Assembly (NCBI GenBank): GCA_041603255.1
Contig: JBFIER010000011.1
Span: forward strand, 53,611-77,610
From: Oceanococcaceae bacterium
GTDB lineage: Bacteria > Pseudomonadota > Gammaproteobacteria > Nevskiales > Oceanococcaceae
Direction of reading: 5' to 3'
DNA: 24,000 bases
The notes under the pieces: generated by a model
The model's database searches: none
What the model saw: the letters and a program-made list of their open reading frames with translations, nothing else
What the model was told of the DNA's origin: nothing
Made by a program: the position numbers and the translations under genes
In this document: in pieces, positions 362 to 24,000 of the stretch
How positions within the stretch are numbered: the stretch's first letter is position 1
How the letters are laid out: every line of letters starts with the position of its first letter

Positions 362-2731
362 TCAGCCGTGCACCGTAGCGTACTCCGTTGGCGTCCCTAC
401 CGCGCGGGGTTGCAAAAATGCCGGCCGGACGAGTGCGATCAGCAAAGGCAGCACCACCAGGGCAGAAACCATGTTGATGGCCATGATGGCCATGATCAGC
501 AGGCCCATGTCGGCGACAAATTTCAGACCCGACAGCAGATACAACGGGAGAATCGCGATGGTCATGATCGACGCCGTGAATGCGATGGCCTGGCCGCTGG
601 TGGTGAGTGACTCACGCAGTGCTTGTACCCATTGCCCCGGACGCAGCGCCAGCTCTTCCTGCACCCGCGACACCAGATAAATGCCGTAGTCGATGCCCAC
701 ACCCAGGCCGATGGCCGCGACGATCATCGAGTTGACGTCCAGGCCGACCCCCAGCAGATGCATGCAGGCAATCATGCTCAGGTGGGCCAGGTTGACCGGA
801 GCCAGCAGCAACAGCCCGGCGATGGGCGAGCGGAAGGCGAACGAGGCCAGCAGGAAAATCGCCACGTTCAACAAGCCCACCACGATGTGGTGGTAACGCG
901 CGATGATGCGATTGATGGCTTCCTGGATGGCGATGGTGCCCGTGCCCAGGCGCACCCGGAAGGCGTCGTGTTCAACCCCGACCTCGTCCACCGCAGCACC
1001 GGCCGCCGCCAGCACCGCATCGACGGTTTCCTGCGTGTTGTCCGCATACCAGAGCGACACGGTCCCGTGCTGCATCGTGTCCGACACCACGTGGCTGTAC
1101 GCTGTGGAACTGGCCCCCATCATCGCGCCGACAGCGGCGGCCGTGAGGGCGCGCTCGCGCGGGTCCAGCGGTAACCAGCGGGGGTCGCCGCCATTGAACA
1201 GCCGGTTCACGTCCGAGAGGTAGTCGGCAAACGAAAGCGTGGCCCGCGGTGGCATGGCGCTGTTTTCCATCGCGCTCTGCAGCTGCTGCATGGTCTGCAC
1301 CGCATCCACCGTGGTGGTGGTCCACTGATCGCTGTCCGGGTCGCGTGCTTCGAGCACGATTTCCAGCGTGTTGGTGCCCGGAAAATCCCGGTTGATGGCG
1401 CGCACCGCGGTGTTGAATTCCGAGTCCTGCCAGAGCAGGTTGCTGCCCGGCACCGGGTTGCCGATACGGATCTGAGCGGAGGTCCACCAGGCGGCCGCCG
1501 TAATCAGCAGCATGACCACCGCCAGCGGGTAACGCCGCGGCCCGCTGACCAGGTTGGCCAGCCCGGTCAGGAAAGGCTTGAGCGCGTGGATCCGTTCGCC
1601 GTTGGCGTCGCGGCTGGGATCCGGCAATACCGCGAGCAGCGGCGCCATCATCAGCACCCCGGTCGGGATCAGCCAGAGCGCCCAGAAGCCGCAGAAAATC
1701 GCATGGTTCACCATGGCCGGTATCGGCGCGGCGACGACCACGATAATGCCGAGCACGTCGGTGATGATCGACAGCATCGAGGGCTTCATCATCGCCTTCA
1801 GCGTGGCGCGGGCAGCCTCCGTGCGGTTGGGTAGCACATGTCGGTATTCCTGGAAACGGCTGGTGAATTGCACGCCGTGGGAAAACGAGCGGGCGATCAG
1901 CAGCAGCGGTACCACCAGCAGCAGCGGTTCGATGGCGATCCGCAGGTGCCCCACAAAGCCGAAGGCCCAGACCGCCGCGGTGCCGGCGGTGATCACCGGT
2001 GTCAGCACGCCAACCAGGCTGCGCATGTTCAGCGACAGGGCGAGGATCAGTATCGTCAGGGTCAGCGTGAATATGCCGGCCATCTGCCATTCGTGGCGAT
2101 AGACCCAGCCGATCAGTGCCGGGCGTCCGGTGAGGTGGACTTCGTGGTGCTCGTCGCGGGCGTCCTCCACCAGCTGCTGCACATATTCAAAGGCCTCACC
2201 CCAGTCCACCTTGTGTTCGATGAAGGTGGCGGTGATGATCGTGGCGTCCTGCTGGGCCGAGATCAGAAAGGTGCGCACGTTGGGCGATTTTTCGACCCGT
2301 TGCCGGATTTCTTCGATATCGGCCGACGTGGTCGGCTTGGAGTCGTCCATCAGCGGGCGCATGTCCACCCCGTAGGGCGTGGCTTGTGAATAGCGCGCCT
2401 TCTCGGTGGCGATGGACATGATCTGCGCGTGATCCACGCCGGGCGCGAGATCGATGTCGCGGGTCAGCTGCCAGATCTTGCCCAGTGTTTCCGGGTTGTA
2501 GATGTCCCCGTCGACGCGTCGGACCATGACGATCATCGTCAACGGGTTGCCGAAGTTGGGGTGGTCCCGGTACACGTCCACCAGGGGGTCATCGGTGGGC
2601 AGCAGGTCGTTGAAGATCGTGCGCAGCTCCACATGCGGCAACCCTGCGGCGAAAAAGGCCGTGATCGCCGCAAATACAACCAGCGTCCAGCCCGGCCGCG
2701 CCAGCAGCCGGTCCGCTAACCAGTCTCCCAT
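362..2731 (-). CDS. RND-superfamily (MMPL/HAE3-like) inner-membrane transporter, paralog 1 (789 aa)
   Basis: Full-length ORF with two blocks of multiple hydrophobic helices, each preceded by a large soluble loop (RND/MMPL topology). It aligns along its length with the 834-aa ORF at 12848-15352. Examples: FGNPLTMIVMV / FGNPLSVVVMI, ATEKARYSQATPYGVDMRP / ATEKARYAEATPYGVDMRP, GVGIDYGIYLVSR / GVGIDYGIYLLSR. It starts 4 nt after the DUF1329 stop. Confidence 0.85.
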   Translation of the reverse strand: MGDWLADRLLARPGWTLVVFAAITAFFAAGLPHVELRTIFNDLLPTDDPLVDVYRDHPNFGNPLTMIVMVRRVDGDIYNPETLGKIWQLTRDIDLAPGVDHAQIMSIATEKARYSQATPYGVDMRPLMDDSKPTTSADIEEIRQRVEKSPNVRTFLISAQQDATIITATFIEHKVDWGEAFEYVQQLVEDARDEHHEVHLTGRPALIGWVYRHEWQMAGIFTLTLTILILALSLNMRSLVGVLTPVITAGTAAVWAFGFVGHLRIAIEPLLLVVPLLLIARSFSHGVQFTSRFQEYRHVLPNRTEAARATLKAMMKPSMLSIITDVLGIIVVVAAPIPAMVNHAIFCGFWALWLIPTGVLMMAPLLAVLPDPSRDANGERIHALKPFLTGLANLVSGPRRYPLAVVMLLITAAAWWTSAQIRIGNPVPGSNLLWQDSEFNTAVRAINRDFPGTNTLEIVLEARDPDSDQWTTTTVDAVQTMQQLQSAMENSAMPPRATLSFADYLSDVNRLFNGGDPRWLPLDPRERALTAAAVGAMMGASSTAYSHVVSDTMQHGTVSLWYADNTQETVDAVLAAAGAAVDEVGVEHDAFRVRLGTGTIAIQEAINRIIARYHHIVVGLLNVAIFLLASFAFRSPIAGLLLLAPVNLAHLSMIACMHLLGVGLDVNSMIVAAIGLGVGIDYGIYLVSRVQEELALRPGQWVQALRESLTTSGQAIAFTASIMTIAILPLYLLSGLKFVADMGLLIMAIMAINMVSALVVLPLLIALVRPAFLQPRAVGTPTEYATVHG

Positions 2732-2735: not shown

Positions 2736-4130
2736 TTAGACGCGCCCGAGCCGCTGCAGCGCTTGCTGGGTCAGATAACGCTCGTACATATCCGGGTCGT
2801 TCGGGCCGCTGAAGTGTTCACCTTCCAGTTCGCGTACCTGCTCCATGCGGGTGACCTTGCCGGTCTGGATATCCGAAGCGATGACCTGCGTCCAGCTCCA
2901 GTACGGGTGTTTGCCATCCATGACCGTCTTGTCACCGGCTTCGTACAGCGAATACGCACCGTCAAAGGAGCGATAGGGTTCGCCGCGGCGGTCGTAGGTG
3001 ACCATGCCGATCAGCGTCTGATTGCGGGCATCAAACCACAACCGCTTCTTGGAAACCGGAGCGCGCGGAAAGCCGGTGGGCTCGCATTCGATGACGATGG
3101 CTTCGGGCACCAGTTCGACTACGGTGTCCCAGAAGCTGTCGTCTTTCTCGCCACCGTGGGTGTTGTGTTCCCAGTTGTCGTGTTCGGCGTGGAAGTTGCC
3201 GGACAGCCCCGCCAGGAACGGCCCGCGTCCCACGATCTTGAAATTCCCCCAGGTGTTGAGCGGATCGCCGGCACCCCAGGCATCCGACAGATACAGCGTC
3301 GTCTTCGGCAACAGGGGCTCGAAACGCTGGCTGGTGGGGAACTGGCGGATGCGGCGGAATTCGGGAACGTAGCCGTACAGCAGCGGGAAGGTGTTCTGAT
3401 CGTAGTCCCAGATGTTCAGGAACGACGTGCCCCGAAAGTTGTACGGCTCCAGGAAGAACACCGATTGAAAGCGCAGCTTGTCCTTGTGTTCCTCCCAGTA
3501 GGGTTTGGGGTCCATGGAGACACGCGCAACGGTGTTCAGCTCGGCCCAGCCACCGGTGTATTCGAAGCTCACGGAACCGTCCGCTTCGATGTTGGAAATC
3601 TTGACCGCGTAGAAAGACGCGTCGTGTCGGCCCCAGCTCAGAACCTGGGCGGCATACAGTTCGATCGCCTTTTGCGGGTCGGGGAAGGGATTGCCGCCGA
3701 TCCACGGCTGACCGTCCAGCGTCACCACATTGCCGCTGTCATCGAACTTGGCCTGGCCCGCGTTGCGCAGTGTCGCTTCCACGTACTCCCACGGCGACAG
3801 GCGGTAGGGGTCGGTGGTGGTCGGGGCGATTTTGAGCTTGCGGCCCTGATTCAGGATCTGCTCATAGCGAATGGGCTCGAGCAGATCTTTGACATGCTCC
3901 ACGTTGGCTGCGGTGATCTCATCACCGGTGCTGATCTTGCCCTTGGTGTAGCCCTCGATGGACAGCAGCTCGTCCGGATAAGCCGACGAGATGTCGCCTT
4001 TGTCCTTGATGGCGGCCCACAACGGGCTGATCACCCCCGTGGCCAGCACACCCAGGCCGGCATCCCGTAAGAATTTGCGGCGGCTGTAGTTCGAATCGTA
4101 TCGGCGAATATGCATTGTGTTTGCTGGCAT
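2736..4130 (-). CDS. DUF1329-family (LolA-like fold) periplasmic protein, paralog 1 (464 aa)
   Basis: Full-length ORF, roughly half identical by eye to the ORF at 15379-16767. Examples: YTKGKISTGDEI / YTKGKISTGDII, FRRIRQFPTSQRFEPL / FRRVRQFPTNQRFEPL, and both C-termini end QQALQRLG. The N-terminus carries SRRKFL plus a hydrophobic stretch. An alternative start is the ATG at 4115 (MHIRRYDSNY, matching the paralog's MNIRKYDFNY). Confidence 0.8.
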   Translation of the reverse strand: MPANTMHIRRYDSNYSRRKFLRDAGLGVLATGVISPLWAAIKDKGDISSAYPDELLSIEGYTKGKISTGDEITAANVEHVKDLLEPIRYEQILNQGRKLKIAPTTTDPYRLSPWEYVEATLRNAGQAKFDDSGNVVTLDGQPWIGGNPFPDPQKAIELYAAQVLSWGRHDASFYAVKISNIEADGSVSFEYTGGWAELNTVARVSMDPKPYWEEHKDKLRFQSVFFLEPYNFRGTSFLNIWDYDQNTFPLLYGYVPEFRRIRQFPTSQRFEPLLPKTTLYLSDAWGAGDPLNTWGNFKIVGRGPFLAGLSGNFHAEHDNWEHNTHGGEKDDSFWDTVVELVPEAIVIECEPTGFPRAPVSKKRLWFDARNQTLIGMVTYDRRGEPYRSFDGAYSLYEAGDKTVMDGKHPYWSWTQVIASDIQTGKVTRMEQVRELEGEHFSGPNDPDMYERYLTQQALQRLGRV

Positions 4131-4312
4131 CCTGCAGCGAGTCTCCCGGGCGAATCATGCCCGAGCTTCGGTGAGGGTGCCCCTATCTTCCGTTAGGGGG
4201 CTCTGACGGAATCCAAGGTGACGGTTTCCTTGGTGGCGCTCCTGAGCCAGCGCCGGCGGCAAAGACAGCGGTCCCTTGCACTCGTCACAGGGCTTCCGCG
4301 CCATGGACGGCG

Positions 4313-4361
4313 CCTGCACTTCTCCGCGCCGTCCGTGGCGCGGAGACCCTGCGCCGGAACC
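4313..4361. repeat. 49-nt perfect direct repeat, copy 1
   Basis: CCTGCACTTCTCCGCGCCGTCCGTGGCGCGGAGACCCTGCGCCGGAACC, identical to 4416-4464 (offset 103 nt). It contains a 10-bp stem with a 6-nt loop. Confidence 0.9.
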
Positions 4362-4370
4362 ACTCCAAAA

Positions 4371-4480
4371 GGCCCGGGAGAGCCGGGGTTCCACCGCAGG
4401 GACGTCTGACCGGCTCCTGCACTTCTCCGCGCCGTCCGTGGCGCGGAGACCCTGCGCCGGAACCCCGGCTCTCCCGGGCC
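4371..4480. repeat. Perfect 20-nt inverted repeat pair enclosing direct-repeat copy 2
   Basis: GGCCCGGGAGAGCCGGGGTT (4371-4390) is the exact reverse complement of AACCCCGGCTCTCCCGGGCC (4461-4480). Together they could form a 20-bp stem around a 70-nt loop that itself contains a 10-bp hairpin. Confidence 0.85.
4416..4464. repeat. 49-nt perfect direct repeat, copy 2
   Basis: Identical to 4313-4361 on base-by-base reading. Confidence 0.9.
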
Positions 4481-4506
4481 GTCAGCAATGGCCAGTTCGG
4501 GTTCCA

Positions 4507-5376
4507 TCAGAGGTTTCTTGGAGGCTGGGAAGGGAGGGTGGTGAGCGGTAGAGGCTTCGTTTCCGTTTCGCAGGATGTCTCCAGGGCCGAGCGCAACAGA
4601 TCCGTGGTGTCGGGCAGCCAGCGATAGTGACCCGCATCGGCCTCGCAGTATCGAAGGCTGCCGTCGCAGCCGTTGTAAGTCATGCAGCCATTGGGGGTGA
4701 CACGCACGCTGCTGCAACCCATGCATTGGGCCCAGCCTTCGGCAGCGGAACTTCCGTAGCCGGGGAACAGGCTGTCCCGGCGTCCGTGGTACAGGGTGAC
4801 GTGGATGCCGGTCGGGCATTGAAACTCTGCAAAGTCCGCCTGCCGCAGGCCGGCGCCGCTGGCCACGATGGCTTTGGGCCGGAGTGGCTGCTCGTAGGGC
4901 AGCAGTGCCAGCAACTGCGCCACGCTGCCCCCGTCTGAGTGCCCGGTGAACGTGACTCTCTGTGGGTCCACACACCAGTGCTGCTGGATGCGCTTCACCT
5001 GCTCGGCCAGCCGTGGGATGGCGGTCGGGCTCAACCGCACGCTGCTGATATAGGCCACGATGATGCCGCGGCCGGTGGCCGCATGCGTCAAACCGACCCA
5101 GCGTTCGGTCAGATGGCTGTTGGCGCCGGCGGGACTGAACACCACCAAAAGCGGATGAGCGCGGGTAGGCTGATAGTTGCTGGGGGTGCGCACATGGAAG
5201 GCGGGCAGTGCGGGGTCCGCGGGCAGGGGGGCGGTGTTGGCGGCACACGCAGCCACGCTGGCGGCAGGGTAATCATAGGCCGCGGGTCTGATGGCCTCCC
5301 CCCAATGGAGCTGGGTCGCCAGCAGGGCAAAAGGAAGCGCCAGGATCACCGCCCAGAGGGCAAACTGTCGCATCAT
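4507..5376 (-). CDS. Secreted alpha/beta-hydrolase esterase, LpqC / PHB-depolymerase-like
   Basis: GHSDGG nucleophile elbow (GxSxG) in VTFTGHSDGGSVAQ, preceded by HPLLVVFSPAGANSH (oxyanion-region-like). The C-terminus is Cys-rich (QCPTG..., CMGCSS..., NGCMTYNGCDGSLRYCE), as in LpqC-type esterases. The start is moved to MMRQFALWAVILALPFALLATQ (ATG at 5376 or 5373), which gives a clean signal peptide. The track ORF start at 5463 would overlap the divergent MerR gene. Confidence 0.65.
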   Translation of the reverse strand: MMRQFALWAVILALPFALLATQLHWGEAIRPAAYDYPAASVAACAANTAPLPADPALPAFHVRTPSNYQPTRAHPLLVVFSPAGANSHLTERWVGLTHAATGRGIIVAYISSVRLSPTAIPRLAEQVKRIQQHWCVDPQRVTFTGHSDGGSVAQLLALLPYEQPLRPKAIVASGAGLRQADFAEFQCPTGIHVTLYHGRRDSLFPGYGSSAAEGWAQCMGCSSVRVTPNGCMTYNGCDGSLRYCEADAGHYRWLPDTTDLLRSALETSCETETKPLPLTTLPSQPPRNL

Positions 5377-5447
5377 TTGCCCCCAGCGCTTACAGTTCGG
5401 TTTGGGGAGGAAAAAGCCCGCGGGCAGGCCGCTGGTACCATAGATCG

Positions 5448-6191
5448 ATGAGCAAAATGACAAAAAAAACGCGCCCGCGAACCAGCCAGACCGAGCGGCC
5501 GGCGCCGTACAAAATGAAGCAGGTCGAGGAGATGACCGGTGTGTCGCGGGAGACCGTTCGGTTCTACATCAGCGAAGGCCTGTTGCCCCCGCCGGTGAAG
5601 TCCGCCCGCAACATGGCCTGGTACTCGGACCGCCATGTCGAATTGCTGCGTCTGATCTCGCGTTTGCAGAACGAACAGTTTTTGCCGCTGCGCGCCATTC
5701 GTTCGCTGGTGCACGGCACCGAAGACATCAGTTTTACTCCCCAGCAGGAGGCGGTGCTCGATGAAATTCGCCAGGAACTGAGCGGGGTCGACGTGCTGCA
5801 CCATGCGGCGAATGAGGAATCCATCGGTGATTGCCCGGAGGGTTTCAGTGGCTGCGAGTGCGAGGAGTTGCGTCAGTTGGGTGAACTGTCGGGGGAGAAC
5901 GACAGCGCGCTGGAAAATGACCTGCGCCGGATCTGGGCGCGTTTGCGGCAGAACGGTTTGACCGAGGAACGGGGTTTCAGTCCGGCCAACCTCGAGTTTC
6001 TGTCCGAACTGGCCAAACTCGCCGTGCAGGAGGAACTGCGGCTGTTTGGCGAAAAGATCGTCCAGATGTCCGAGGGCGAAGCCAAGCGTTTGTCCCATGA
6101 AGTCATCCCCGCGTTGAACGATGTATTCAGTCTCCTCCACAAGCAGCGCCTGACGTTGGCCATCAAAAATCTGCTTGAAGAGCGCAAGTAG
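5448..6191 (+). CDS. MerR-family transcriptional regulator with a long C-terminal domain containing a C-x6-C-x-C cluster
   Basis: MerR-type winged HTH: YKMKQVEEMTGVSRETVRFYISEGLLPPPVKSARNMAWYSDRHVELLRLISRLQNEQFLPLRAIRSLV. Cys129/Cys136/Cys138 (GDCPEGFSGCECEE, nt 5832-5861). The start is uncertain: ATG 5448, 5457 or 5514, and none has a strong Shine-Dalgarno. Confidence 0.8.
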   Translation: MSKMTKKTRPRTSQTERPAPYKMKQVEEMTGVSRETVRFYISEGLLPPPVKSARNMAWYSDRHVELLRLISRLQNEQFLPLRAIRSLVHGTEDISFTPQQEAVLDEIRQELSGVDVLHHAANEESIGDCPEGFSGCECEELRQLGELSGENDSALENDLRRIWARLRQNGLTEERGFSPANLEFLSELAKLAVQEELRLFGEKIVQMSEGEAKRLSHEVIPALNDVFSLLHKQRLTLAIKNLLEERK

Positions 6192-6234
6192 CTTAGCGCG
6201 ATAAACGCAAAGTGCGTAGTGTGTCCACGTACAG

Positions 6235-6267
6235 TTGACACAATTTGCAACATCATGCCAGCATAGT
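6235..6267 (+). promoter_or_regulatory. Candidate sigma70-type promoter upstream of the monooxygenase operon (perfect -35, over-long spacer)
   Basis: TTGACA at 6235-6240. The best -10-like hexamers are CAGCAT (18-nt spacer) and CATAGT (6262-6267, 21-nt spacer, 4/6 match to TATAAT). No experimental support; motif reading only. Confidence 0.25.
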
Positions 6268-6304
6268 TTCGCGCCCATTACGGGCCGTTGCTCGAGGAGA
6301 TCAC

Positions 6305-7114
6305 ATGAGTAAGCAAATTGAGATGGGTGCCGGCGCTGTCGACACTCCGCGTGCACCCTGGCGTGCCATCTTTCTGGCGTTGGCCGGGATTGCCGTCGTT
6401 TTCGGCTTGTATCGCGTTTATCAGCATCAAACCGCCTTTACCTTCGGCCTGGACTATTTCAGCGATGACTTCCAGAAGTACTGGATGACCGTGCTGTACG
6501 TCGAGCTGACGGTCATTCCGTTGCTGGGCGCTGCGATCGTCGGTTATCTGTGGAAGACCCGTGACCGTCATCTGGACCAGCTCAAGCCGGTGGATGAACT
6601 GGGTCGTTACATGAAACTGGTGGGCATGCTGCTGCTGTTCGTAACGGTGTTCTACCTGACCGGTTCGATCTACGCCGAATCCGATGCCGCCTGGCACCAG
6701 GTGACCGTGCGTGATACCGATTTCACCCCCACCCATATCGGCTTGTTCTACTTCGCGGTTCCGACCCTGATCGTGCTGGGTGTGAGCAGCTTCATGTACG
6801 CACGAACCCGCTTGCCGCAGTTTGCCGAGCGGGTCTCCCTGCCGTTTGCCATCGCGGTGGCCGGCCCGATCATGATCATGCCGAACCTCGGTTTCAACGA
6901 ATGGGGCCACACGTTTTTCTACGCTGAAGAGCTGTTTGCCGCACCGATTCACTGGGGCTTCGTGCTGCTGGGCTGGGCGGTGTTCGCTGCCGCCGGGCTG
7001 CTGGTGCAGGTGCTGACCCGCATCATCGCGCTGACCAAGCAAATGAACGATGACGCCGCTGCCGCCGTGCAGCCGGTGTTGAGGCAGGATCAGGCGGTCG
7101 CCAAGGCCGCCTGA
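6305..7114 (+). CDS. pmoC: Copper membrane monooxygenase subunit C (PmoC/AmoC family)
   Basis: Hallmark motifs are SDAAWHQVTVRDTDFTPTH and GFNEWGHTFFYAEELFAAPIHWGFVLLGW. These conserve the D-x3-H-x12-H (D127/H131/H144) and N-x3-H-x13-H (N198/H202/H216) ligand sets described for the PmoC CuC and CuD sites. The start is moved to ATG 6305 (MSKQIEMG), preceded by a GAGGAG Shine-Dalgarno. The track's TTG at 6245 lacks one. Confidence 0.9.
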   Translation: MSKQIEMGAGAVDTPRAPWRAIFLALAGIAVVFGLYRVYQHQTAFTFGLDYFSDDFQKYWMTVLYVELTVIPLLGAAIVGYLWKTRDRHLDQLKPVDELGRYMKLVGMLLLFVTVFYLTGSIYAESDAAWHQVTVRDTDFTPTHIGLFYFAVPTLIVLGVSSFMYARTRLPQFAERVSLPFAIAVAGPIMIMPNLGFNEWGHTFFYAEELFAAPIHWGFVLLGWAVFAAAGLLVQVLTRIIALTKQMNDDAAAAVQPVLRQDQAVAKAA

Positions 7115-7125
7115 GGGGAAATCTC

Positions 7126-7162
7126 CAAGAAGCCGCCTTGACCAGGCGGCTTCTTGCTTTTG
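7126..7162 (+). terminator. Strong stem-loop with a short T-tract between subunit C and subunit A genes (attenuator, transcript-processing or stability element)
   Basis: CAAGAAGCCGCC (7126-7137), loop TTGACCA, GGCGGCTTCTTG (7145-7156): a perfect 12-bp stem, followed by CTTTTG. It lies 12 nt after the pmoC stop and 15 nt before the pmoA ATG. Confidence 0.5.
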
Positions 7163-7176
7163 AGTGAGGGAGACAT

Positions 7177-7923: not shown

Positions 7924-7941
7924 TTTCCCGAGGAGAGATTC

Positions 7942-12679: not shown

Positions 12680-12695
12680 ATTTTCGGGTTTTTTA

Positions 12696-12742: not shown

Positions 12743-12847
12743 AGCGGGTACGTACCATCACTCCACAGTCAGGCGTGCTGTCCGTACGCCTGAATTACGT
12801 GCGAGAGACACCCGCGTCGAAAGACCGGAAACGAGGGGACAATCAAG

Positions 12848-16767: not shown

Positions 16768-17798
16768 TGCGTAACGGTACGTTTGGTCGAGGGCAGCGTG
16801 TTGCTGCCCTCATAGCCTTCGCCGCCATCGTTCACCCGGCATGGGCAGAGTCCAAGGACGACGCTGTGCATATCCACTCGGCAGAGAGTGAACTGGTGCG
16901 CGTGGGGACTCCGCATGCCGCGCTGTTTGACGTCAGCGCCTATGGCAGTCGTCTGTTCACCGTGGGTGCAGCTGGCCAGATCCTGCGCAGCGATGATGGC
17001 GGGAAGCAGTGGGAACCCGAGTTGGCGCCCAGCCCCGCGGCTTACCTCGGGGTGTCAAACGCCGGTGATTACGCCGTTGCGGTGGGCCAGATGGGAATCG
17101 TCGCTTACCGCAACCTTCAAGGCGAATGGGCCGTTGCCGAAAGCAACACGACGGAGCGTCTGTTCGATGTTTCCATCAACGCCCGCGGAGTCGGTGTGGC
17201 TGTGGGAGCGTTTGGCGCCCTGATCCGTACCTCCGATGGTGGCAAGACGTGGGTGGAGGCTGCGCCTTCCTGGAAAGGGGTGTTCCGGGACGGGGCCGGT
17301 CGTTTGGGTGAGTTTTTCACCCCCAGTCTTTACACCGTCCAAACCTCAGAAAGCGGCAAAGTCTGGGTTGGCGGGGAGCTGGCTCTGATCATGACCTCGG
17401 AGGATGGTGGTGTGAGCTGGACCATTCGCAATGCGGGTGGCAACGATGAAGAGGGAATCGAGCCGACGATCTCCGCGATTGACGTGCGCTCGGATGGTGT
17501 TGGGTATGCCGTGGGGCAGGAGGGGTTCATCCTGCGTACGGAAAACGCCGGAGCGACCTGGGCTTCACTACCCAGACCCACCAAATCCAATCTGCTTGGC
17601 GTTGCCAGCAAGCGGGATGGGACCGTTGTTCTCAGCGGGATGCGTGACATGCGTATCAGCCGAGACGACGGGCGCACCTTCAATCCGGTCTACGGGAACG
17701 GGATTGAAACGGGGTGGTTTCATGGGGTCGTCGCCGTTGATGGAGCACATGCGCTCACCGTGGGTATCGCTGGGAAGGTACTCCGGGTCATCAATTAA
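16767..17798 (+). CDS. BNR-repeat / Ycf48-like beta-propeller periplasmic protein
   Basis: The ATG overlaps the upstream stop (TAATG). Signal peptide ends AWAESK. Repeated SxDxGxxW-type BNR motifs: RSDDGGKQW, TSDGGKTW, TSEDGGVSW, TENAGATW, SRDDGRTF. Confidence 0.8.
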   Translation: MRNGTFGRGQRVAALIAFAAIVHPAWAESKDDAVHIHSAESELVRVGTPHAALFDVSAYGSRLFTVGAAGQILRSDDGGKQWEPELAPSPAAYLGVSNAGDYAVAVGQMGIVAYRNLQGEWAVAESNTTERLFDVSINARGVGVAVGAFGALIRTSDGGKTWVEAAPSWKGVFRDGAGRLGEFFTPSLYTVQTSESGKVWVGGELALIMTSEDGGVSWTIRNAGGNDEEGIEPTISAIDVRSDGVGYAVGQEGFILRTENAGATWASLPRPTKSNLLGVASKRDGTVVLSGMRDMRISRDDGRTFNPVYGNGIETGWFHGVVAVDGAHALTVGIAGKVLRVIN

Positions 17799-17842: not shown

Positions 17843-20011
17843 ATGAATTTGCGTGAAACTTGCACGGCGTTTTCCGTGGCAGTCATTGGAGTCATGGGGG
17901 TTATGCCGGTTGACGAGGCGGATGCAAAAATCCGCTTTTCGTACGGTGGCTTTCTTCGACTTGAGGCGGCATACCATATCGGGCAAGAGAACCCGAACAA
18001 TCAGGGCGGCAACCTGCTCAACGATGTTGAGGTGCACCGGGAGCCGTTCCTGCCGCCCAACTACATTCAGGGTGCAGGGCCGACGATTGCGCCGCGTTAT
18101 GACAGCGTTTCGTTGGACCTGCCCTACGGGGACGATCTCCGGCGCGGCGACCTGGTCCCCAGCACCGAAAATGATTTCAACTACACCGTCGTTCGGGGTG
18201 AGGTTGAAGGCATCCTGAAGTTCAATCGCAGCTGGCGCATCGTGACCCGGGTGCGGGGCATCTACGACCCGGTCATCTACGACGAGTTCGACGCCCAAAG
18301 TGTCAGCAACCTGCCGGTGTACGAGCAGGGCGGTATCAAGAGCGGCCCCTGGGCCGACCCGGCCCTGTATGAAAGTACACCGAACTATTTCGAGTACTCG
18401 GTTGCTGACGGGAACGGCGGTTTTGCACCGGGCAACCCGGTCGAAATCGCCGGGCGCAATTACATGGTCGACCTGCCGGCGGCGATTCTCGAGTACAACC
18501 ATCGCTCGCTGAATTTCCGCATCGGGAACCAGCAGATCGCCTGGGGGCAGTCCATCTTCTTCCGGGTGTTTGACGTGCCGAATGGCCTGGACCTGCGCCG
18601 GCACTCGATCCTGGACCGCGCGCTGGAGGAGTTCTCCGACAAACGGGTGCCGATGCTGTCCGCACGGGTGACCTACCAGGTGACCAACAACATTCTGTTT
18701 GATGGGTATGTGGGCAAGTTCCAGCCCACCGTGTTTGGCAACCCCAACACGCCCTACAACATCATCCCGGTGCAGTTCACTGTGCAGGACACCTACAAGA
18801 GCGGGGGCTACGATGACGAAATCGTCGGCGGTTTCCGCCTGAAAGGCGACTACGGGCAATGGGGCTTCCAGCTGGGTTATGCCCATCGCTATGGTACGGA
18901 GGGGGTGTTCCGCTGGACCGAAACCGGGGTCGAGCAGCCGCTGGGTGATGGCGTCGGTCCGAATGTGCTGGGAACGGCAGATCTTGTCGGCACGCTGCCA
19001 ATTATCGGAGACATCGCGGCGACAGGCTTATCGGCTGGTGCGGTCACCATGATGGATTACAACTTGAAGTCACCCGCAGGCACCGGGCTGTGCCCGGCCG
19101 AGTCCTTTGATGACCCGGACTACAACTATTCCATGTGCCGCAGCTACGCCAATACCGCCGAAGCCCTGGCCCATGCGTCCTTCCATCCCGGGGCCGGTGG
19201 TGTTTACTCGGCTGAAGAGTGGTTCCGCTATGCCGCCGAGGTGCGTCTGGACGGCATCATGGGGCTGAATGCGGCGATCAACGAATTCCCGGCTGCGCAG
19301 GATGTGTACGCCTCCCCGGTGGCCAATGCTTCCGAGGCTGAGGGTGAACTGGGCACCTTCTTTGTAGCCACCGGCGGGGCGCTGCGTGGGCATATTGCCC
19401 GTGAGTACTTCCGCGAAGACAACTTCATGGCCGGTGTGAGCTATGTGGTCGAGTCGGATATCGACTTCCTCAACCAGTTGATCATCAACCTGGAAGGGCA
19501 GTACACGCCGGAGCGACACTTCACCAACATCACGCTGTCGCGCGAGTACATCAAGCAGGACGAATACATCATCTCGCTGGTAGCCGACAAGTGGCACCGC
19601 TTCTTCAACGAGTTCCCCGGTACCTACATCGTGATGCAGGCGCTGACCCGCAACCGCGCGGATCTGGTCGGGCGTCATCTGTCCGGGATGGGCGGCAAGC
19701 CACTGGACAAGTTGAAGCCGGACGATACCCGGACGACGACGCCCATCAATCACAACTCCAACTACCTGGTGCTGGGCTTCCTGCAACCCTGGCCGAACAA
19801 GATTTATGAGCTGGAGTTTGCCTCCCTGCTGGACCTCGAGGGCGGGGTCTTTGCCCAGGCGGGTCTGCGCTGGAACCCGGGTAAGGGCATCACCATCGAA
19901 GGCTTCTACAACTATGTGGACAGCGGCCTGTGGGGCAACAAGTACAACAACCTGATGTCCACCATTGATTTCGCCGAAGAGTTCACGCTTCGCGCGGCCT
20001 ACCAGTTCTGA
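17843..20011 (+). CDS. DUF1302-family outer-membrane beta-barrel protein (722 aa)
   Basis: Signal peptide, alternating beta-strand-like aromatic/Gly-rich composition throughout, and a C-terminal AAYQF ending in Phe (OMP signature). Its size and its neighbourhood with DUF1329, BNR and RND genes match the recurrent DUF1302 gene context. Confidence 0.75.
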   Translation: MNLRETCTAFSVAVIGVMGVMPVDEADAKIRFSYGGFLRLEAAYHIGQENPNNQGGNLLNDVEVHREPFLPPNYIQGAGPTIAPRYDSVSLDLPYGDDLRRGDLVPSTENDFNYTVVRGEVEGILKFNRSWRIVTRVRGIYDPVIYDEFDAQSVSNLPVYEQGGIKSGPWADPALYESTPNYFEYSVADGNGGFAPGNPVEIAGRNYMVDLPAAILEYNHRSLNFRIGNQQIAWGQSIFFRVFDVPNGLDLRRHSILDRALEEFSDKRVPMLSARVTYQVTNNILFDGYVGKFQPTVFGNPNTPYNIIPVQFTVQDTYKSGGYDDEIVGGFRLKGDYGQWGFQLGYAHRYGTEGVFRWTETGVEQPLGDGVGPNVLGTADLVGTLPIIGDIAATGLSAGAVTMMDYNLKSPAGTGLCPAESFDDPDYNYSMCRSYANTAEALAHASFHPGAGGVYSAEEWFRYAAEVRLDGIMGLNAAINEFPAAQDVYASPVANASEAEGELGTFFVATGGALRGHIAREYFREDNFMAGVSYVVESDIDFLNQLIINLEGQYTPERHFTNITLSREYIKQDEYIISLVADKWHRFFNEFPGTYIVMQALTRNRADLVGRHLSGMGGKPLDKLKPDDTRTTTPINHNSNYLVLGFLQPWPNKIYELEFASLLDLEGGVFAQAGLRWNPGKGITIEGFYNYVDSGLWGNKYNNLMSTIDFAEEFTLRAAYQF

Positions 20012-20024: not shown

Positions 20025-20071
20025 CTCACCCACGTCAATGCCTTACGGGCGGCGTGGGTGAGTATTTGCTT
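20025..20071 (+). terminator. Putative intrinsic terminator downstream of the DUF1302 gene
   Basis: CTCACCCACG (20025-20034) pairs with CGTGGGTGAG (20053-20062): a 10-bp stem with an 18-nt loop, followed by the T-rich TATTTGCTT. The loop is long, so confidence is moderate. Confidence 0.4.
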
Positions 20072-20134
20072 GTGGCGCGGCTCGCCGTCCCACGGGTGAA
20101 CTTTGAGTATCGGATTGATAGAGAGGAGAACCTC

Positions 20135-21697
20135 ATGCACATGAGTCAAATGGTCTACCGCTGCGAGCAGATGTGTGGATCCAGCATCGCCACGGAATTT
20201 CAGGGGCGTGCATTCACTTGGGCGGAAACGGCAGATCGCGTCCGCCGCATGGCCGGCATGCTGCAGCAACTGGGCATTCAGGAGAACCAGCAAGTCGCGG
20301 TCCTCTCGCTGAACAGTGATTTATATTTCACCGCGTTGTTTGGTGTGCCGCAGATGGGGGCGCGGATTGTGCCGCTGAACATTCGTTGGGCGCTGCCCGA
20401 GTTTGTGTACGCCCTGAACGACTCGGAGACCTGTGCGTTGATGTTCGATGCGGCATTTCTGCCCATCGCCACTCAACTGCGCGATGAAGACACCCGAATC
20501 AAACACTATTTGTTTATGGGCTCGCGGGAGGCGTGTCCGGAATGGGCGGTGCATGTCGACACCGCTCTCGAGAGCGCCCCCGCCGTTCCTGATTTCAAAG
20601 TATCCGAGCAGGAGTTGGCGGGGATTTTTTACACCGGCGGCACGACCGGCTTTCCCAAAGGGGTCATGCTCACGCATACCGCCTTGTTTACCAGTGCGTT
20701 GAGCCTGGTGGCTGCATCCGATGCGACACAGCAGGACACTATGTTGCACGCCGCGCCGATGTTTCACATGGCGGATCTGGCGGCGTGTTTCATGTTTACC
20801 CTGCTGGGAGCACGCAATGTCATCGTGCCGGCTTTCGAGCCGAAGTTGGTGCTGGAAAGCATCGCCAAATACGATGTGACCGATGCGTTGCTGGTTCCGG
20901 CGATGGTTCAGATGGTGTTTGATCATCCGGAGTTCGCGGCCGAGAAGATCTCTGGCATGAAGCGCATTCTGTACGGCGCGTCGCCGATGCCCGAGGGTTT
21001 GATGCGCCGGGTGATGCAGGCATCCCCGGGCGTGCAACTGGTTCAGGCCTACGGACAGACCGAACTGGCACCGGTGGCGACGATACTCAAGGCCGAGGAC
21101 CACGTGCTCGAAGGCGAACGTTCGCGGCTACTGCGCTCTGCCGGGCGTAGCAGTTGCTCCATGTTGCTGAAGATCATCGACAAGGATGGTCAACCGGTAC
21201 CGGTGGGAGAGGTCGGCGAGATTTGCTGTGCCGGCCCCAACGTTATGTTGGGTTACTGGAACAAACCTGAGCAGACGGCCAGTACATTGATCGACGGCTG
21301 GGTGCATGCCGGCGATGCCGGATACCTGGATGACGAGGGCTACCTGTTCCTGGTCGATCGGGTGAAGGACATGATCGTCACCGGCGGCGAGAACGTGTAT
21401 TCGGCAGAGGTCGAAAGTGTGGTGTCACGCCATCCGGGTGTCGCGCAGGTCGCCGTTATCGGTGTGCCGCATGACGAGTGGGGCGAGGCGGTTCACGCCA
21501 TCATCGTGCCGCGTCCGGGTGAGGAGCCGGTTGCCGATGACATCATCAGCTATTGCCGCACGTTGATCGCCGGTTACAAGTGCCCGAAAAGTGTCGAGTT
21601 ACGGATGGACCCGTTGCCGCTTTCCGGTGCCGGCAAAGTGCTCAAGCGGGAGCTGCGTGCGCCTTACTGGGAAGGGCGCGACCGGCAGGTCAACTAA
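20135..21697 (+). CDS. Acyl-CoA synthetase / fatty-acid-CoA ligase (class I adenylate-forming enzyme)
   Basis: AMP-binding signature FYTGGTTGFPKGVMLTH. Also QAYGQTELAP, GDAGYLDDEGYLFLVDRVKDMIVTGGENVYSAEVE and the C-terminal GKVLKRELR. The start is moved to ATG 20135 (MHMSQMVYR), preceded by a GAGGAG Shine-Dalgarno. The track's start at 20054 lies inside the terminator hairpin. Confidence 0.85.
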   Translation: MHMSQMVYRCEQMCGSSIATEFQGRAFTWAETADRVRRMAGMLQQLGIQENQQVAVLSLNSDLYFTALFGVPQMGARIVPLNIRWALPEFVYALNDSETCALMFDAAFLPIATQLRDEDTRIKHYLFMGSREACPEWAVHVDTALESAPAVPDFKVSEQELAGIFYTGGTTGFPKGVMLTHTALFTSALSLVAASDATQQDTMLHAAPMFHMADLAACFMFTLLGARNVIVPAFEPKLVLESIAKYDVTDALLVPAMVQMVFDHPEFAAEKISGMKRILYGASPMPEGLMRRVMQASPGVQLVQAYGQTELAPVATILKAEDHVLEGERSRLLRSAGRSSCSMLLKIIDKDGQPVPVGEVGEICCAGPNVMLGYWNKPEQTASTLIDGWVHAGDAGYLDDEGYLFLVDRVKDMIVTGGENVYSAEVESVVSRHPGVAQVAVIGVPHDEWGEAVHAIIVPRPGEEPVADDIISYCRTLIAGYKCPKSVELRMDPLPLSGAGKVLKRELRAPYWEGRDRQVN

Positions 21698-21713
21698 CCT
21701 TGCCTGACGGCGA

Positions 21714-24000
21714 CTAGATCAGCCCCAGATCCTGCGCTCTGGCCAAAGCGCCAGAGCGGTTCTTGACGGCCAGCTTGCCGTAGATGTTGTGCAGGTGCCA
21801 CTTCAGCGTGCCTTCAGACACGAAGATGGCTTCCGCGATTTCCCGGTTGCTGAGCCCGGATTGCAGGCGTTTCAGGATTTGCGCCTCACGCTGTGTGAGC
21901 TCTTCGAGTAGTGTTTCCTGCGAGAGATTGCGCTCGCGGGCGACCGCCTTGGGCGCGCTGGTTGTGGCTTCCCGGATCCGACGCAGCAACGGCGCCGCCG
22001 CCTTGTGCGCCGGCTCGAGCTTGATTTTTCCCAGCAGGTTGGTGATCAACTCACCCTCATCCACGAAGATGCGGAAGTACTGGTGCTGGGCGCCCAGCAT
22101 CAGCGCATCACGCAGCACCAGCAGGGCCGTCGCTTCATCATCCGCCAGTGCATAGGCCTGGGCCTGCAATAACAACAGCTGGGCCTCACGATGGGCCAGC
22201 TTCAGTTCGCGGCTGTGCGCGATGGCCGAGGTCAGACAATCGGCGGCACGCTCGGGGTTGTCGCTCAAGTGCAGGCGGCTGGAGACGCGGTAGGATTTTT
22301 CGGCCTGCAGTGAAAAATCGTGCTCGTCACAGGGCTTTTGGTCCAGATCAAGCTGCCGTGCCCGCGCATGCGCCAGTTCAAACCGATTATCACGGCACAG
22401 CCAGCTGATTTCTTCGGTGGCCAATGTCAGCTCGGCGCGGTGCAGGCCGGAACGACGGGCCCGCTCCTGCCCGGCTTTGAGGCAGTTGTAACCGGATTCC
22501 GCCCCGCCATTCGCATAATAAATGCGCGCCTGGGCCAGATGCTGAATGATCAGGTAATCGGCCTGCACATAGTCGTCGTCATTCTCCGGCACGGCATCGA
22601 GGTGCGTTTGCGCTGCGCCGAAGTTTCCCCACTCGTACTCGACAAACGCCAGGATGGCGTGGCCAATGCCGGCGTGCTGATACAGACCCGGCATGTGGAC
22701 CTGCATGTGCTCGATAAGCTGCCGGGCAGTGTGGTGGGCGGCCTCGAAATCACCACGCTTGAGCATGATGAAACCCTCGATGGCGAAGTTCCAGGCCAGT
22801 GGGTAATAGCTTTCGGTGGCGACGAGGCGGGCTCTGGCGTCATGTACCACGTCCAGTGCCTGATCCAGTCTGGACCAGCTCTTGAGCGCAAAGGCATACA
22901 CGTTCAACACCGTGCCGATCCCGCTCTCGCTGTCGTTGGTCCATCGCGCCAGCCATTGCTCGCAGTTGCGCAGCATCGCTTCTTTCTGGTCGCTGATCCC
23001 GGCGAGGTGGCACTCATGCTTGCCGATTTCACGTTCCAGCGTTTCGATCAACTGCTGGTTCTCTTGCGGGCTTTTGCGGAGCTCGGCCAGCTGATCCCGC
23101 AGGATTTGCAACTGCACTTCCACGACTTGCGGGCGAGCGAAAAAAATCAGTGCAAAGACGTAGTTCAGGCGAATCTGCGGATGTTGCATTGCCCATTCAT
23201 TTGGCAGCTGATCCATCCACTCCATGATCGTATGCAGATAGCCCCGCCGAAACACCAGGGTTTCGACGCTGGCATCCAGCCATTGGCTGGCTTCCGCCCA
23301 GGCCTGCGCGCGCATCGCGTAGTGAATGGCTTCAACCAGCAGCCCGCGGTCGTACAAATTATGGGCGCCACGGATCAGGGCGTTGCGGCAGTAATCCGGG
23401 TGATGGCGCTGACCCTGCTCACGGAAGAATTGTCCGACCAGATGGTGAAAGCGGAACCAGTGCCCGCTCTGGTCCATCCGTTTGAAGAACAGATTGCGGG
23501 AGTGCAGTGAATCGAGTTTTTTTCTGGCCTCGACATCGCCGGTCGCGGCGGCCACCAGATCGGCATCAACCCGGTTGAACTGGGCGATGGCAAAAATGAA
23601 CTGCCGGGTTTCCACATCCAGGTGCTCGAGCAGCACCTCACCGAGGTATTCCATGACGCTGGCGTCGTTGCCCGCGAAGTCGGAGACCAGCTGGTTCGGG
23701 TCGGCGCTGCCATCAAGAATCAGCGTGGCCAGTTCCAGTCCCGCCGGCCAGCCCTCGGTCCGTGTGCTCAACTGTTGGATGCTGGTTTCCGACAGGCAGT
23801 CACCGAGCCGGGAGGTCACGAAATCCATGACTTCCGTATCGGTAAACTTGAGCTGGTCGGTGCCATATTCAACCAGTGTGCGACGGACCCGGAGCCGGCT
23901 CAGCGGCAGCATGCTCTCGGTACGGCTCCCCAGCACGAATTGCAGCTGTGGCGGCGCGTATTGCGTCAGCCACTGCAAGATCTTGAGCACTTCGGTGTTG
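21714..24000 (-). CDS. LuxR/MalT-like large transcriptional regulator, C-terminal ~760 aa (N-terminal ATPase part lies beyond the window end)
   Basis: C-terminal LuxR HTH: LTQREAQILKRLQSGLSNREIAEAIFVSEGTLKWHLHNIYGKLAVKNRSGALARAQDLGLI. A long helical/TPR-like middle region. The reading frame stays open from the listed GTG at 23990 to nt 24000, so the gene is truncated by the window. Convergent with the acyl-CoA synthetase, with a 16-nt gap. Confidence 0.8.
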   Translation of the reverse strand, partial: NTEVLKILQWLTQYAPPQLQFVLGSRTESMLPLSRLRVRRTLVEYGTDQLKFTDTEVMDFVTSRLGDCLSETSIQQLSTRTEGWPAGLELATLILDGSADPNQLVSDFAGNDASVMEYLGEVLLEHLDVETRQFIFAIAQFNRVDADLVAAATGDVEARKKLDSLHSRNLFFKRMDQSGHWFRFHHLVGQFFREQGQRHHPDYCRNALIRGAHNLYDRGLLVEAIHYAMRAQAWAEASQWLDASVETLVFRRGYLHTIMEWMDQLPNEWAMQHPQIRLNYVFALIFFARPQVVEVQLQILRDQLAELRKSPQENQQLIETLEREIGKHECHLAGISDQKEAMLRNCEQWLARWTNDSESGIGTVLNVYAFALKSWSRLDQALDVVHDARARLVATESYYPLAWNFAIEGFIMLKRGDFEAAHHTARQLIEHMQVHMPGLYQHAGIGHAILAFVEYEWGNFGAAQTHLDAVPENDDDYVQADYLIIQHLAQARIYYANGGAESGYNCLKAGQERARRSGLHRAELTLATEEISWLCRDNRFELAHARARQLDLDQKPCDEHDFSLQAEKSYRVSSRLHLSDNPERAADCLTSAIAHSRELKLAHREAQLLLLQAQAYALADDEATALLVLRDALMLGAQHQYFRIFVDEGELITNLLGKIKLEPAHKAAAPLLRRIREATTSAPKAVARERNLSQETLLEELTQREAQILKRLQSGLSNREIAEAIFVSEGTLKWHLHNIYGKLAVKNRSGALARAQDLGLI

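Follow-up and report, generated by a model that had tools for sequence, protein, structure and literature searches.

A copper membrane monooxygenase operon between AmeABCD-type transport modules of an Oceanococcaceae bacterium points to a modular and recurrent association

The 24,000-nucleotide stretch analysed here (hereafter the window; GenBank assembly GCA_041603255.1, contig JBFIER010000011.1, positions 53,611 to 77,610 of the forward strand) belongs to an Oceanococcaceae bacterium (Gammaproteobacteria, Nevskiales) and carries an xmoCAB-type copper membrane monooxygenase (CuMMO) operon with its copper-related genes, flanked on both sides by genes of a trans-envelope transport system (hereafter the cassette). 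On balance, we favour the view that this arrangement is a composite hydrocarbon-catabolic island built of two separable parts, in which having the CuMMO next to the cassette is of advantage and has come about repeatedly, without being obligatory. All components are of known kinds, and the comparison of loci across genomes lends partial support to a functional unit: the parts are associated repeatedly, but as separable modules and not in the manner of one obligate operon. None of the papers searched describes the CuMMO–cassette pairing, the insertion/deletion series or the shared operator reported below. For most CuMMOs other than those of methane and ammonia oxidisers no function is known, and the cassettes, which are widespread and occur in Pseudomonas aeruginosa among others, are mechanistically undefined; the recurrent physical link would offer a testable partner for each, namely a hydrocarbon or alcohol cargo for the cassette and, for the enzyme, substrates hydrophobic enough to call for management at the envelope.

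An initial annotation of the window had listed the genes of this island, all of which were recovered at their positions by open reading frame (ORF) listing combined with Pfam and NCBIfam scans. It had described two paralogous RND/MMPL plus DUF1329 pairs on opposite strands, and the left and right pairs are indeed true paralogues (54% identity for RND, 46% for DUF1329). The left module, on the minus strand, encodes a LolA-like periplasmic protein (DUF1329_L; 2736–4130, Pfam DUF1329 E 1.5e-51) and an HAE3/MMPL-type RND inner-membrane transporter of 789 aa (RND_L; 362–2731, Pfam MMPL E 4e-30, TIGR00921 HAE3). The right module, on the plus strand, encodes a second HAE3/MMPL-type RND transporter of 834 aa (RND_R; 12848–15352, Pfam MMPL, TIGR00921) and a second LolA-like periplasmic protein (DUF1329_R; 15379–16767, Pfam DUF1329 E 2e-50), and is extended, as the initial annotation had it, by an AmeC-like Ycf48-like BNR beta-propeller (16767–17798, Pfam PSII_BNR E 1e-18) and an AmeA-like outer-membrane barrel of a divergent DUF1302 subfamily (17843–20011, Pfam DUF1302 E 1e-18, 68 bits for a cut-off of 23). 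DUF1329, BNR and DUF1302 of the right module all lie above the Pfam cut-offs (172, 68 and 68 bits), DUF1329 being the sole one of these three families in the left module. Both RND proteins exceed the Pfam MMPL cut-off, and their best NCBIfam subfamily, TIGR00921 (HAE3, E 2e-35), stays below its trusted cut-off. By family content, the sets on either side can be assigned to a transport system already described, the AmeABCD type (DUF1302, DUF1329, Ycf48-like BNR, HAE3 RND). Twin-arginine-like starts are present in DUF1329_L (SRRKFL) and DUF1329_R (GRRKLM), which suggests twin-arginine translocation (Tat) export of the LolA-like component, the Tat-signal match of DUF1329_L sitting at threshold.

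The division of the island into two parts became apparent from the sister contigs L083 and L088. The left-hand proteins have close orthologues in these contigs and in L084 (RND_L 88% in L083, 74% in L088 and 67% in L084; DUF1329_L 92%, 83% and 81%, respectively). In L088 (83% RND identity), a DUF1329/RND pair faces an RND/DUF1329 pair across 205 bp, with one perfect copy of a palindrome described below and neither MerR nor xmo, and in L083 (93% RND identity) the same modules face each other with a MerR gene alone between them. Using blastn, we found both contigs to be collinear with the window at 76–82% nucleotide identity except for window positions 4160–5493, which hold REP-like repeats and an esterase gene, and 6183–12708, which hold xmoCABD-copCD and the gene of a 164-aa protein (orf164); L083 has about 100–130 bp in place of the two window-only segments. 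Because the sister contigs are collinear without the monooxygenase, the CuMMO block of 6.5 kb is best regarded as a separate unit inserted into an older locus of two divergent modules, and its placement in the former shared divergent control region therefore accounts for the paralogous pairs that flank the CuMMO on opposite strands. The GC content at third codon positions (GC3) is uniform along the island and XmoA groups with Nevskiales, which together argue for an insert native to this order. Regarding polarity, we favour insertion of a MerR–esterase–xmo module followed by partial loss in L083, since MerR and esterase homologues go with xmo in many other loci and L088, as the more distant relative, points in the same direction. 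The series L088, L083 and window illustrates how a hub of transport and regulation that is already in place can take up a monooxygenase module.

Two other origins were considered and rejected. The xmo block is not compositionally foreign, as GC and GC3 stay even along the island and the block has neither direct nor inverted repeats at its ends, and co-transfer of cassette and CuMMO from Porticoccaceae does not fit the more than 100 closer homologues of RND_R (63–93% identity, mainly Nevskiales, with other Gammaproteobacteria) as compared to the 55–58% identity of the xmo-linked RNDs of Porticoccaceae.

The co-occurrence of CuMMO and cassette genes, for which the initial annotation had proposed a search across genomes, was evaluated in 80 genome loci with XmoA relatives, with no more than 10 kb taken on either side, and a cassette component was found near xmo in 19 of them. 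Searches by tblastn with the window proteins underestimated the pairing: RND_R-like cassettes were detected in this way solely in the Porticoccaceae/Cellvibrionales clade (XmoA about 51–58% identical), and the divergent canonical cassettes of L010, L024, L004 and L007 surfaced via family hidden Markov models and Pfam. In 11 of the 13 Porticoccaceae-type loci with enough flank, xmoCAB-pmoD is followed by RND-DUF1329-BNR-DUF1302, in some cases with a multicopper-oxidase-like pair between the two; these cassettes start with the RND gene, and the window order is found in L057, L065 and L079, with BNR preceding DUF1329 in L071 and L072. Within Nevskiales, immediate adjacency has arisen in at least four different and independent arrangements. 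The order reads RND | DUF1329-DUF1302-BNR-MerR-xmoCABD in L010 (Oceanococcus), BNR-RND-DUF1329-DUF1302 | esterase-xmoCABD-copCD in L024 (Panacagrimonas) and copCD-orf164-DUF1302 in L004 and L007/L035. Cassette components lie 3–8 kb from xmo in L003 and L012, and a lone DUF1329 gene is found about 0.8 kb past the multicopper-oxidase-like pair in L069, beside a Baeyer–Villiger monooxygenase-like gene.

Orthologues of the window cassette are also encountered beside other oxygenases. L084 (78% RND identity) combines alkB, rubredoxin, MalT, aldehyde dehydrogenase (ALDH) and AMP-ligase genes with the four-gene cassette, a second, orthologous DUF1329-RND pair, a ferredoxin and a cytochrome P450, both transport modules thus being found together there, and in L086 (Solimonas sp. 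K1W22B-7, CP031704) a 936-aa RoxA-like, rubber-oxygenase-type cytochrome c (7053–9863) is encoded directly 5' of the orthologous RND-DUF1329-BNR-DUF1302 genes, with an aldehyde-oxidase-type molybdoenzyme 3' of them, so that a role of this cassette in handling polyisoprene cleavage products is possible. AMP-ligase, short-chain dehydrogenase, esterase and zinc-dependent alcohol dehydrogenase genes surround the cassette of L085. In L082 (1–19249), the four-gene cassette is tandemly duplicated and accompanied by MalT, and each copy is followed by the gene of a protein of about 700 aa with no Pfam match. The DUF1302 protein of the window is 56–72% identical to its orthologues in L082 and L084–L086.

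These contexts bear on two alternative roles for the transport modules. One is that they serve the copper supply of the CuMMO, for instance by moving a copper chelator, and the position of the cassette directly 3' of copper genes, both in the window (copCD-orf164) and in Porticoccaceae (multicopper-oxidase-like pair), as well as the lone DUF1302 barrel after orf164 in L004 and L007, would be in line with it. However, no copper genes accompany the orthologous cassettes that stand beside iron or haem oxygenases (AlkB, P450, RoxA-like). Both the LolA-like and the HAE3 components suggest a lipid-like cargo, and it is for monoterpenes and fatty esters that phenotypes have been published, so that such a role in copper economy is highly improbable. 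The other, put forward by Price et al., is that RND, DUF1329, BNR and DUF1302 export a lipid component of the outer membrane or the envelope, in which case they would take part in general remodelling on hydrophobic substrates and not handle the CuMMO substrate or product. The pleiotropic mutant phenotypes in Shewanella and P. stutzeri (10.1101/072470) agree with lipid export, as does the export of endogenous lipids by the characterised HAE3/MMPL relatives HpnN and MmpL3 (NCBIfam matches; PMC6394551). We nevertheless consider it unlikely in view of the recurrence of cassettes in catabolic islands for different hydrophobes (monoterpenes, alkanes, a rubber-oxygenase-like context, CuMMO) and of the many paralogues per genome, both of which are more readily understood if cassettes handle particular substrates than if one housekeeping lipid is exported.

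A second line of evidence comes from a palindrome, CCTAAC-N4-GTTAGG, found upstream of both transport modules. The left copy (CCTATCTTCCGTTAGG, 4182–4197) lies 52 bp upstream of DUF1329_L and the right copy (CCCAACTAAAGTTAGG, 12714–12729) about 120 bp upstream of RND_R; allowing up to two mismatches, these are the only two matches in the window, for an expectation of 0.26, and 2 of 100 shuffled sequences reach two. The palindrome is conserved in L083, L088 and L082; the right site has an identical copy in L083, and perfect palindromes are present in L088, L082 and L003. Throughout 1.44 Mb of fetched loci, at no more than one mismatch, the palindrome occurs only in intergenic DNA beside cassettes or 5' of xmoC. 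On the cassette side (L003 19677, L082 9860, L083 3041 and 3948, L088 5899, and the window) it is mostly directly upstream of the RND or DUF1329 gene. On the xmoC side it stands about 110–220 bp upstream of the gene in eight betaproteobacterial loci, as a perfect palindrome in L016 (8812), L017 (5999), L019 and L020 (8938), L021 (5826) and L022 (8981) and with one mismatch in L011 (8880) and L026 (7667). The xmoC promoters that bear it belong to Polaromonas, Rhodoferax, Hydrogenophaga and Acidovorax. In every case, at the Nevskiales cassettes as at these promoters, a MalT-like regulator with a KWHLHNIY recognition helix is encoded nearby.

In Polaromonas sp. AER18D-145 (L016), the palindrome sits in a 172-bp divergent region between ALDH-GMC oxidoreductase-AMP-ligase genes on one side and xmoCAB-pmoD, a pyrroloquinoline quinone (PQQ)-dependent alcohol dehydrogenase, orf164 and copCD on the other, and the MalT-like regulator of this locus and the right-hand regulator of the window have nearly identical recognition helices (TEGTVKWHLHNIYAKLGVKNRTGAL and SEGTLKWHLHNIYGKLAVKNRSGAL, respectively). 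CCTAAC-N4-GTTAGG is thus probably the operator of an AlkS/MalT-type regulator. The nearly identical helices and the same palindrome therefore point to one regulator/operator type, acting on the Polaromonas CuMMO pathway and, by extension, on the transport-plus-ligase modules of the window, and this shared operator and regulator type would tie CuMMO and cassette to one AlkS/MalT-type control system. Beyond it, the loci of the alkane-utilising Polaromonas and Rhodoferax (L016–L022; Rochman et al. 2020, cited in PMC8630023) have in common with the window an XmoA of 68% identity, pmoD, copC, the copD-cytochrome c fusion, an orf164 homologue and an acyl-CoA ligase gene. The two differ in that the palindrome is at the divergent xmoC/ALDH promoter in Polaromonas and at the transport modules in the window, where MerR precedes xmoC, and in that the Polaromonas loci carry PQQ alcohol dehydrogenase, GMC oxidoreductase and ALDH genes with no RND/DUF1329 cassette within 10 kb, whereas the window lacks dehydrogenases. 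A different motif (TGTATAGTAAYRCTA) is present in the Oceanococcus locus L010 at about 2955–2975, in the RND|DUF1329 divergent region, and at about 8925–8945, 5' of xmoC, with the MerR gene between, and may point to joint control of cassette and CuMMO in that genome. Hairpin and fold scans gave no convincing terminator between orf164 and RND_R, and read-through from the former into the latter is possible.

As to the fate of the oxidised product, the initial annotation had proposed a route from the CuMMO to acyl-CoA and had noted its incompleteness in the window. The route finds backing, by analogy, in the dehydrogenase genes of relatives. The Polaromonas xmo locus encodes a full one (CuMMO, PQQ or GMC alcohol dehydrogenase, ALDH and acyl-CoA ligase), GMC (AlkJ-like) oxidoreductases stand by xmo in L003, L013 and L016, the last of these also with ALDH and AMP-ligase, and L008 (15907–19593) encodes, directly 3' of the xmo-cop cluster, a PQQ quinohemoprotein alcohol dehydrogenase together with a WS/DGAT wax-ester synthase, a context that hints at longer-chain alcohol products. 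Judged from ORF layout, L052 (15878–19535) resembles L008, its ORFs agreeing in size, order and strand.

In the working that we propose, the older backbone would be formed by the two divergent AmeABCD-type hydrophobe-transport modules, the left with DUF1329 then RND and the right with RND, DUF1329, BNR and DUF1302 followed by the acyl-CoA ligase, each module carrying a CCTAAC-N4-GTTAGG operator, and with a MalT/AlkS-like LuxR regulator gene at each outer end. The second part, lodged in the former shared control region, would comprise MerR, esterase, xmoCAB-pmoD, copC, copD-cytochrome c and orf164. The CuMMO would hydroxylate a hydrocarbon in the inner membrane, with PmoD, CopC, the CopD-cytochrome c protein and the HLH-motif protein encoded by orf164 supplying or handling its copper. 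RND pumps driven by the proton motive force would work together with DUF1329 as carrier, the propeller and the barrel of DUF1302 to form a conduit through which the hydrophobic substrate, or the alcohol made from it, is moved across the envelope. We favour efflux that relieves overload, as for AmeABCD, with uptake or envelope-lipid export as alternatives. Dehydrogenases encoded elsewhere would oxidise the product and the acyl-CoA ligase would activate the acid. Control of transport and ligase genes would fall to the MalT-like regulators, and that of xmo probably to MerR.

The initial annotation had gone further and suggested that all these genes may act as one functional unit. The recurrent adjacency, the occurrence of the cassette with other oxygenases, the operator link and the full Polaromonas route speak for this idea, and several observations weigh against it and against the composite island itself. 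Both transport modules persist in L083 and L088, where the CuMMO is missing; the operator is absent from the window xmoC promoter at up to two mismatches, which counts against co-regulation inside the window; no alcohol or aldehyde dehydrogenase gene lies in the 24 kb; no cassette component lies within 10 kb of xmo at 8 of 17 Nevskiales loci, a count that includes the window, or at any of the betaproteobacterial loci; and the cassettes are multi-copy in these genomes, with at least three RND_R-like paralogues in Solimonas sp. K1W22B-7. The direction of transport and the substrate are, moreover, ones that we infer, and characterised relatives of this CuMMO clade reportedly use gaseous C2–C4 alkanes, for which a transporter is not needed (Rochman et al. 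2020).

Many of these points would equally be expected if the co-location were incidental, that is, if the xmo-cop block had settled, or been retained, at an intergenic site that tolerates it, in a genome with many Ame-like cassettes, and the modules served other substrates such as lipids, long-chain alkanes or esters, with no functional tie to the CuMMO. Besides the sister contigs, the operator-free xmoC promoter, the many paralogues per genome and the cassette orthologues in other oxygenase contexts, the closest xmo loci (L001–L003) fit this explanation, as they lack an adjacent cassette and none has an orthologue of the window cassette. On the other side, CuMMO and cassette are adjacent (within 500 bp or with only copper accessory genes between) in the several Nevskiales arrangements described above and conserved as neighbours across Porticoccaceae genera, and the same operator and regulator type recurs at xmoCAB in Betaproteobacteria. 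Chance adjacency was roughly estimated at a few percent per locus even at about one cassette per 70 kb, a density that was taken from the same flanks and is an upper bound, the loci not being phylogenetically independent. Incidental co-location is thus a possibility of some substance, if not a probable one, and the composite island with an advantageous, non-obligatory pairing remains the reading that we prefer.

The closest parallel to the right module is AmeABCD of Castellaniella defragrans, which is encoded in a monoterpene island and whose deletion leads to lower monoterpene tolerance and higher Nile Red influx (PMC6394551). Both comprise the same four families within a hydrocarbon-catabolic island, with a predicted architecture that combines an RND in the inner membrane and a barrel in the outer membrane with two proteins of the periplasm. 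The systems differ in gene order, which is DUF1302-DUF1329-BNR-RND (A-B-C-D) in AmeABCD and RND-DUF1329-BNR-DUF1302 in the window, as in L082–L086; in the divergence of the window DUF1302 and DUF1329 proteins (Pfam E 1e-18/1e-51 vs about 1e-150/1e-120 in the canonical cassettes of L010 and L024); in the second DUF1329-RND pair of the window, which has neither barrel nor propeller of its own; and in the partner enzymes, a CuMMO here and anaerobic monoterpene enzymes there. An efflux/tolerance phenotype for a hydrophobic growth substrate is known from C. defragrans alone, whereas the system of the window is read from its genes.

The initial annotation had stated that the DUF1302/DUF1329/BNR/RND set has no defined mechanism. 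This is in part outdated, since AmeABCD has been characterised genetically as a monoterpene-tolerance system; the mechanism as such is still undefined. Likewise, a link to a CuMMO had been presented as a clue to the cargo class, and a hydrophobic cargo had already been proposed from AmeABCD and from work using random barcode transposon-site sequencing (RB-TnSeq). By RB-TnSeq, the four cassette families are cofit in several bacteria (10.1101/072470), and P. putida mutants in cassette genes are defective on Tween 20 and butyl stearate, with a LuxR-type regulator linked (10.1101/2020.07.04.188060). The genes concerned in P. putida KT2440 are PP_0765/PP_0766 (DUF1302/DUF1329), the LuxR gene PP_0767 and PP_2018/PP_2019 (BNR/RND) (10.1101/2020.07.04.188060). 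They resemble the window in their families, in the LuxR-type regulator and in the associated fatty-acid and acyl-CoA metabolism genes, and differ from it in being split over two loci, in their fatty-ester phenotype and in having no linked oxygenase. A DUF1302–DUF1329 complex has been predicted by AlphaFold-Multimer (ipTM 0.84; PMC13499233).

Among CuMMO loci, a further counterpart is that of the Porticoccaceae (Candidatus Reddybacter / B045 clade), whose enzyme has been linked to methylcycloalkane use in a paper that does not mention the cassette (10.1101/2022.11.07.515388). In L057, L065 and L079, as in the window, xmoCAB-pmoD and copper accessory genes are followed on the same strand by RND, DUF1329, BNR and DUF1302. 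The Porticoccaceae loci differ in sequence (XmoA about 51–58%, cassette RND 55–58% identical to the window), in a multicopper-oxidase-like pair instead of copCD, in a single cassette and, in L079, in an AraC instead of a MalT regulator. We tentatively add, as a rather doubtful extension, that Nevskiales and Porticoccaceae CuMMOs might act not on gases but on larger hydrophobic, membrane-partitioning substrates (such as C5 or longer alkanes, cycloalkanes or terpenoids), with a dedicated Ame-like conduit for substrate or product that CCTAAC-N4-GTTAGG would tie to the AlkS/MalT-type regulon driving xmoCAB in Polaromonas. If this were true, it would provide a cargo class and a physiological partner for the DUF1302/DUF1329 system and widen the natural substrate range of CuMMOs.

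The overall layout of the island also recalls the alk clusters of alkane degraders. These encode the oxygenase AlkB, the outer-membrane importer AlkL, the acyl-CoA synthetase AlkK and the MalT/LuxR-type regulator AlkS. Island and alk clusters alike join a membrane oxygenase to a component for passage across the envelope, to an acyl-CoA ligase and to a regulator of the MalT/LuxR class, whereas alk clusters rely on a di-iron oxygenase and an eight-stranded barrel and the window has a copper oxygenase and a four-component RND conduit, with dehydrogenases not encoded in it.

The monooxygenase core conforms to the xmoCAB type named in the initial annotation. The subunit genes follow the order C-A-B on the plus strand (6305–9168; Pfam E 1e-79 to 1e-123), with xmoC at 6305–7114 (AmoC E 2e-79), xmoA at 7177–7923 (AMO E 5e-79) and xmoB at 7942–9168 (Monooxygenase_B E 3e-123), and ligands of the copper sites CuB, CuC and CuD could be aligned to solved structures of particulate methane monooxygenase. 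The N-terminal His (AHGE) and the HVH motif of XmoB align with the CuB ligands of 3RGB (chain 3RGB_A), and XmoC matches PmoC of 3RFR (chain 3RFR_C) at the CuC ligands D, H, H (DAAWHQ...FTPTH) and the CuD ligands N, H, H (NEWGH...IHW). The Xmo proteins score below the NCBIfam equivalog cut-offs of AmoA, AmoC and the methane/ammonia monooxygenase A, B and C models; the AmoB_BACT cut-off is exceeded (507 bits vs 336). The nearest named relatives of XmoA are those of Sinimarinibacterium, Panacagrimonas and other Nevskiales (79–80% identity), followed at 68% by Polaromonas, Rhodoferax and Hydrogenophaga. The function of Nevskiales CuMMOs, such as that of Solimonas aquatica, is treated as unknown in the literature (PMC8630023, PMC6215863). 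The Betaproteobacteria among the relatives are alkane-utilising. The CuMMO of the window is taken here to be probably of the hydrocarbon type, with copper-handling genes of its own. Between xmoC and xmoA, a very stable hairpin with a stem of 12–13 bp (7126–7156, plus strand; -26.7 kcal/mol, z -2.76) is followed by CTTTTG; within the operon it may act as an attenuator or serve to process or stabilise the mRNA. Tandem xmoC copies were observed 5' of xmoA in some loci (L002 7912–9700, L006 3022–4859, L029 6733–8832).

Four of the five copper-related genes that the initial annotation had attached to this operon could be sustained, all on the plus strand; the fifth, MerR, was dropped, as it scores 35 bits against the CueR model TIGR02044, the cut-off being 147, with only helix-turn-helix (HTH) residues 24–91 aligned. 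The first (9168–9764) encodes a PmoD homologue of 198 aa that matches the PmoD periplasmic domain of PDB 6CPD (phmmer, E 1e-10; 6CPD_A over residues 32–163), lies directly 3' of xmoB and overlaps its stop with the start codon, and pmoD holds this position in 65 of the 80 loci. It is followed by the tandem of the periplasmic copper-binding protein CopC (9761–10156, Pfam CopC E 1e-21, 78 bits for a cut-off of 23) and a 668-aa fusion of the membrane protein CopD with a cytochrome c (10153–12159; Pfam CopD residues 198–300, 51 bits for a cut-off of 32, and Cytochrom_C residues 403–484), both below the NCBIfam equivalog cut-offs. The xmo loci of Nevskiales, of Betaproteobacteria and of some Pseudomonadales keep this fusion next to copC (38–48% identity), and it hints at a redox step in copper handling. 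The fourth gene, orf164 (12185–12679, weak DUF4399 match), encodes a 164-aa periplasmic protein with a signal peptide and a His/Met-rich N-terminus. In an alignment of 16 homologues the motifs HLH (G-HLH), TM and S-MP are invariant, and among xmo loci the gene was found with copC-copD in every case; judged by these features the protein probably binds copper and may represent a new kind of periplasmic copper protein. A multicopper-oxidase-like protein of 560 aa and a partner of 218 aa are encoded 3' of xmoCAB-pmoD in many lineages, at about 38 of the 80 loci (e.g., L065 12690–15021, L003 12774–15276, L029, L045, L053); in most such loci this pair replaces copCD-orf164 and looks like an alternative accessory module.

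The remaining genes of the initial annotation (acyl-CoA synthetase, esterase, two MalT-class regulators and MerR) are likewise present, with both MalT genes cut by the window edges. The MerR-family regulator of 247 aa (5448–6191, plus strand; Pfam MerR_1 E 1e-18), whose C-terminal half is uncharacterised, scores far below the cut-offs of other metal-sensor models too. Its homologues lie 5' of xmoC in L001, L003, L010, L012 and L013. Of the two MalT/LuxR-type regulators, the right one (21714–23990, minus strand, its N-terminus off the window edge) shows the TPR region and GerE HTH of the MalT class (TPR_MalT and GerE; MalT profile positions 142–896), and the left one (1–303, minus strand, six-frame translation) shows only the N-terminus with Walker A GPAGHGKST before running off the edge. 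The acyl-CoA ligase (20054–21697, plus strand; Pfam AMP-binding E 2e-82) exceeds the cut-off of the NCBIfam long-chain-fatty-acid-CoA ligase model PRK06187 (503 bits vs 476), its true start probably being the ATG at 20135. Exact-sequence look-ups of DUF1302, RND_L, DUF1329_L and the ligase from that ATG returned no matches; a Logan contig of 8.8 kb with an exact XmoA match is identical to window positions 4425–13183.

The secreted alpha/beta-hydrolase esterase (4507–5373, minus strand) has a signal peptide, a GHSDG motif and weak COesterase, Lipase_3 and PHA-depolymerase matches, and its gene is also called in the Logan contig L081. Homologues of this esterase (33–55% identity) are encoded a few kb from xmoCAB in at least 15 loci of Gamma- and Alphaproteobacteria (L001, L003, L005, L012, L024, L029, L032, L034, L037, L044, L045, L051, L053, L055 and L073), and among the 80 loci the esterase–xmo association spans more lineages than that of the RND cassette. 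Within the same 1.3-kb esterase-bearing segment that is absent from L083, two 54-nt REP-like direct repeats (4308–4464), 98% identical, form GC-rich internal hairpins (fold -58.5 kcal/mol, z -3.1).

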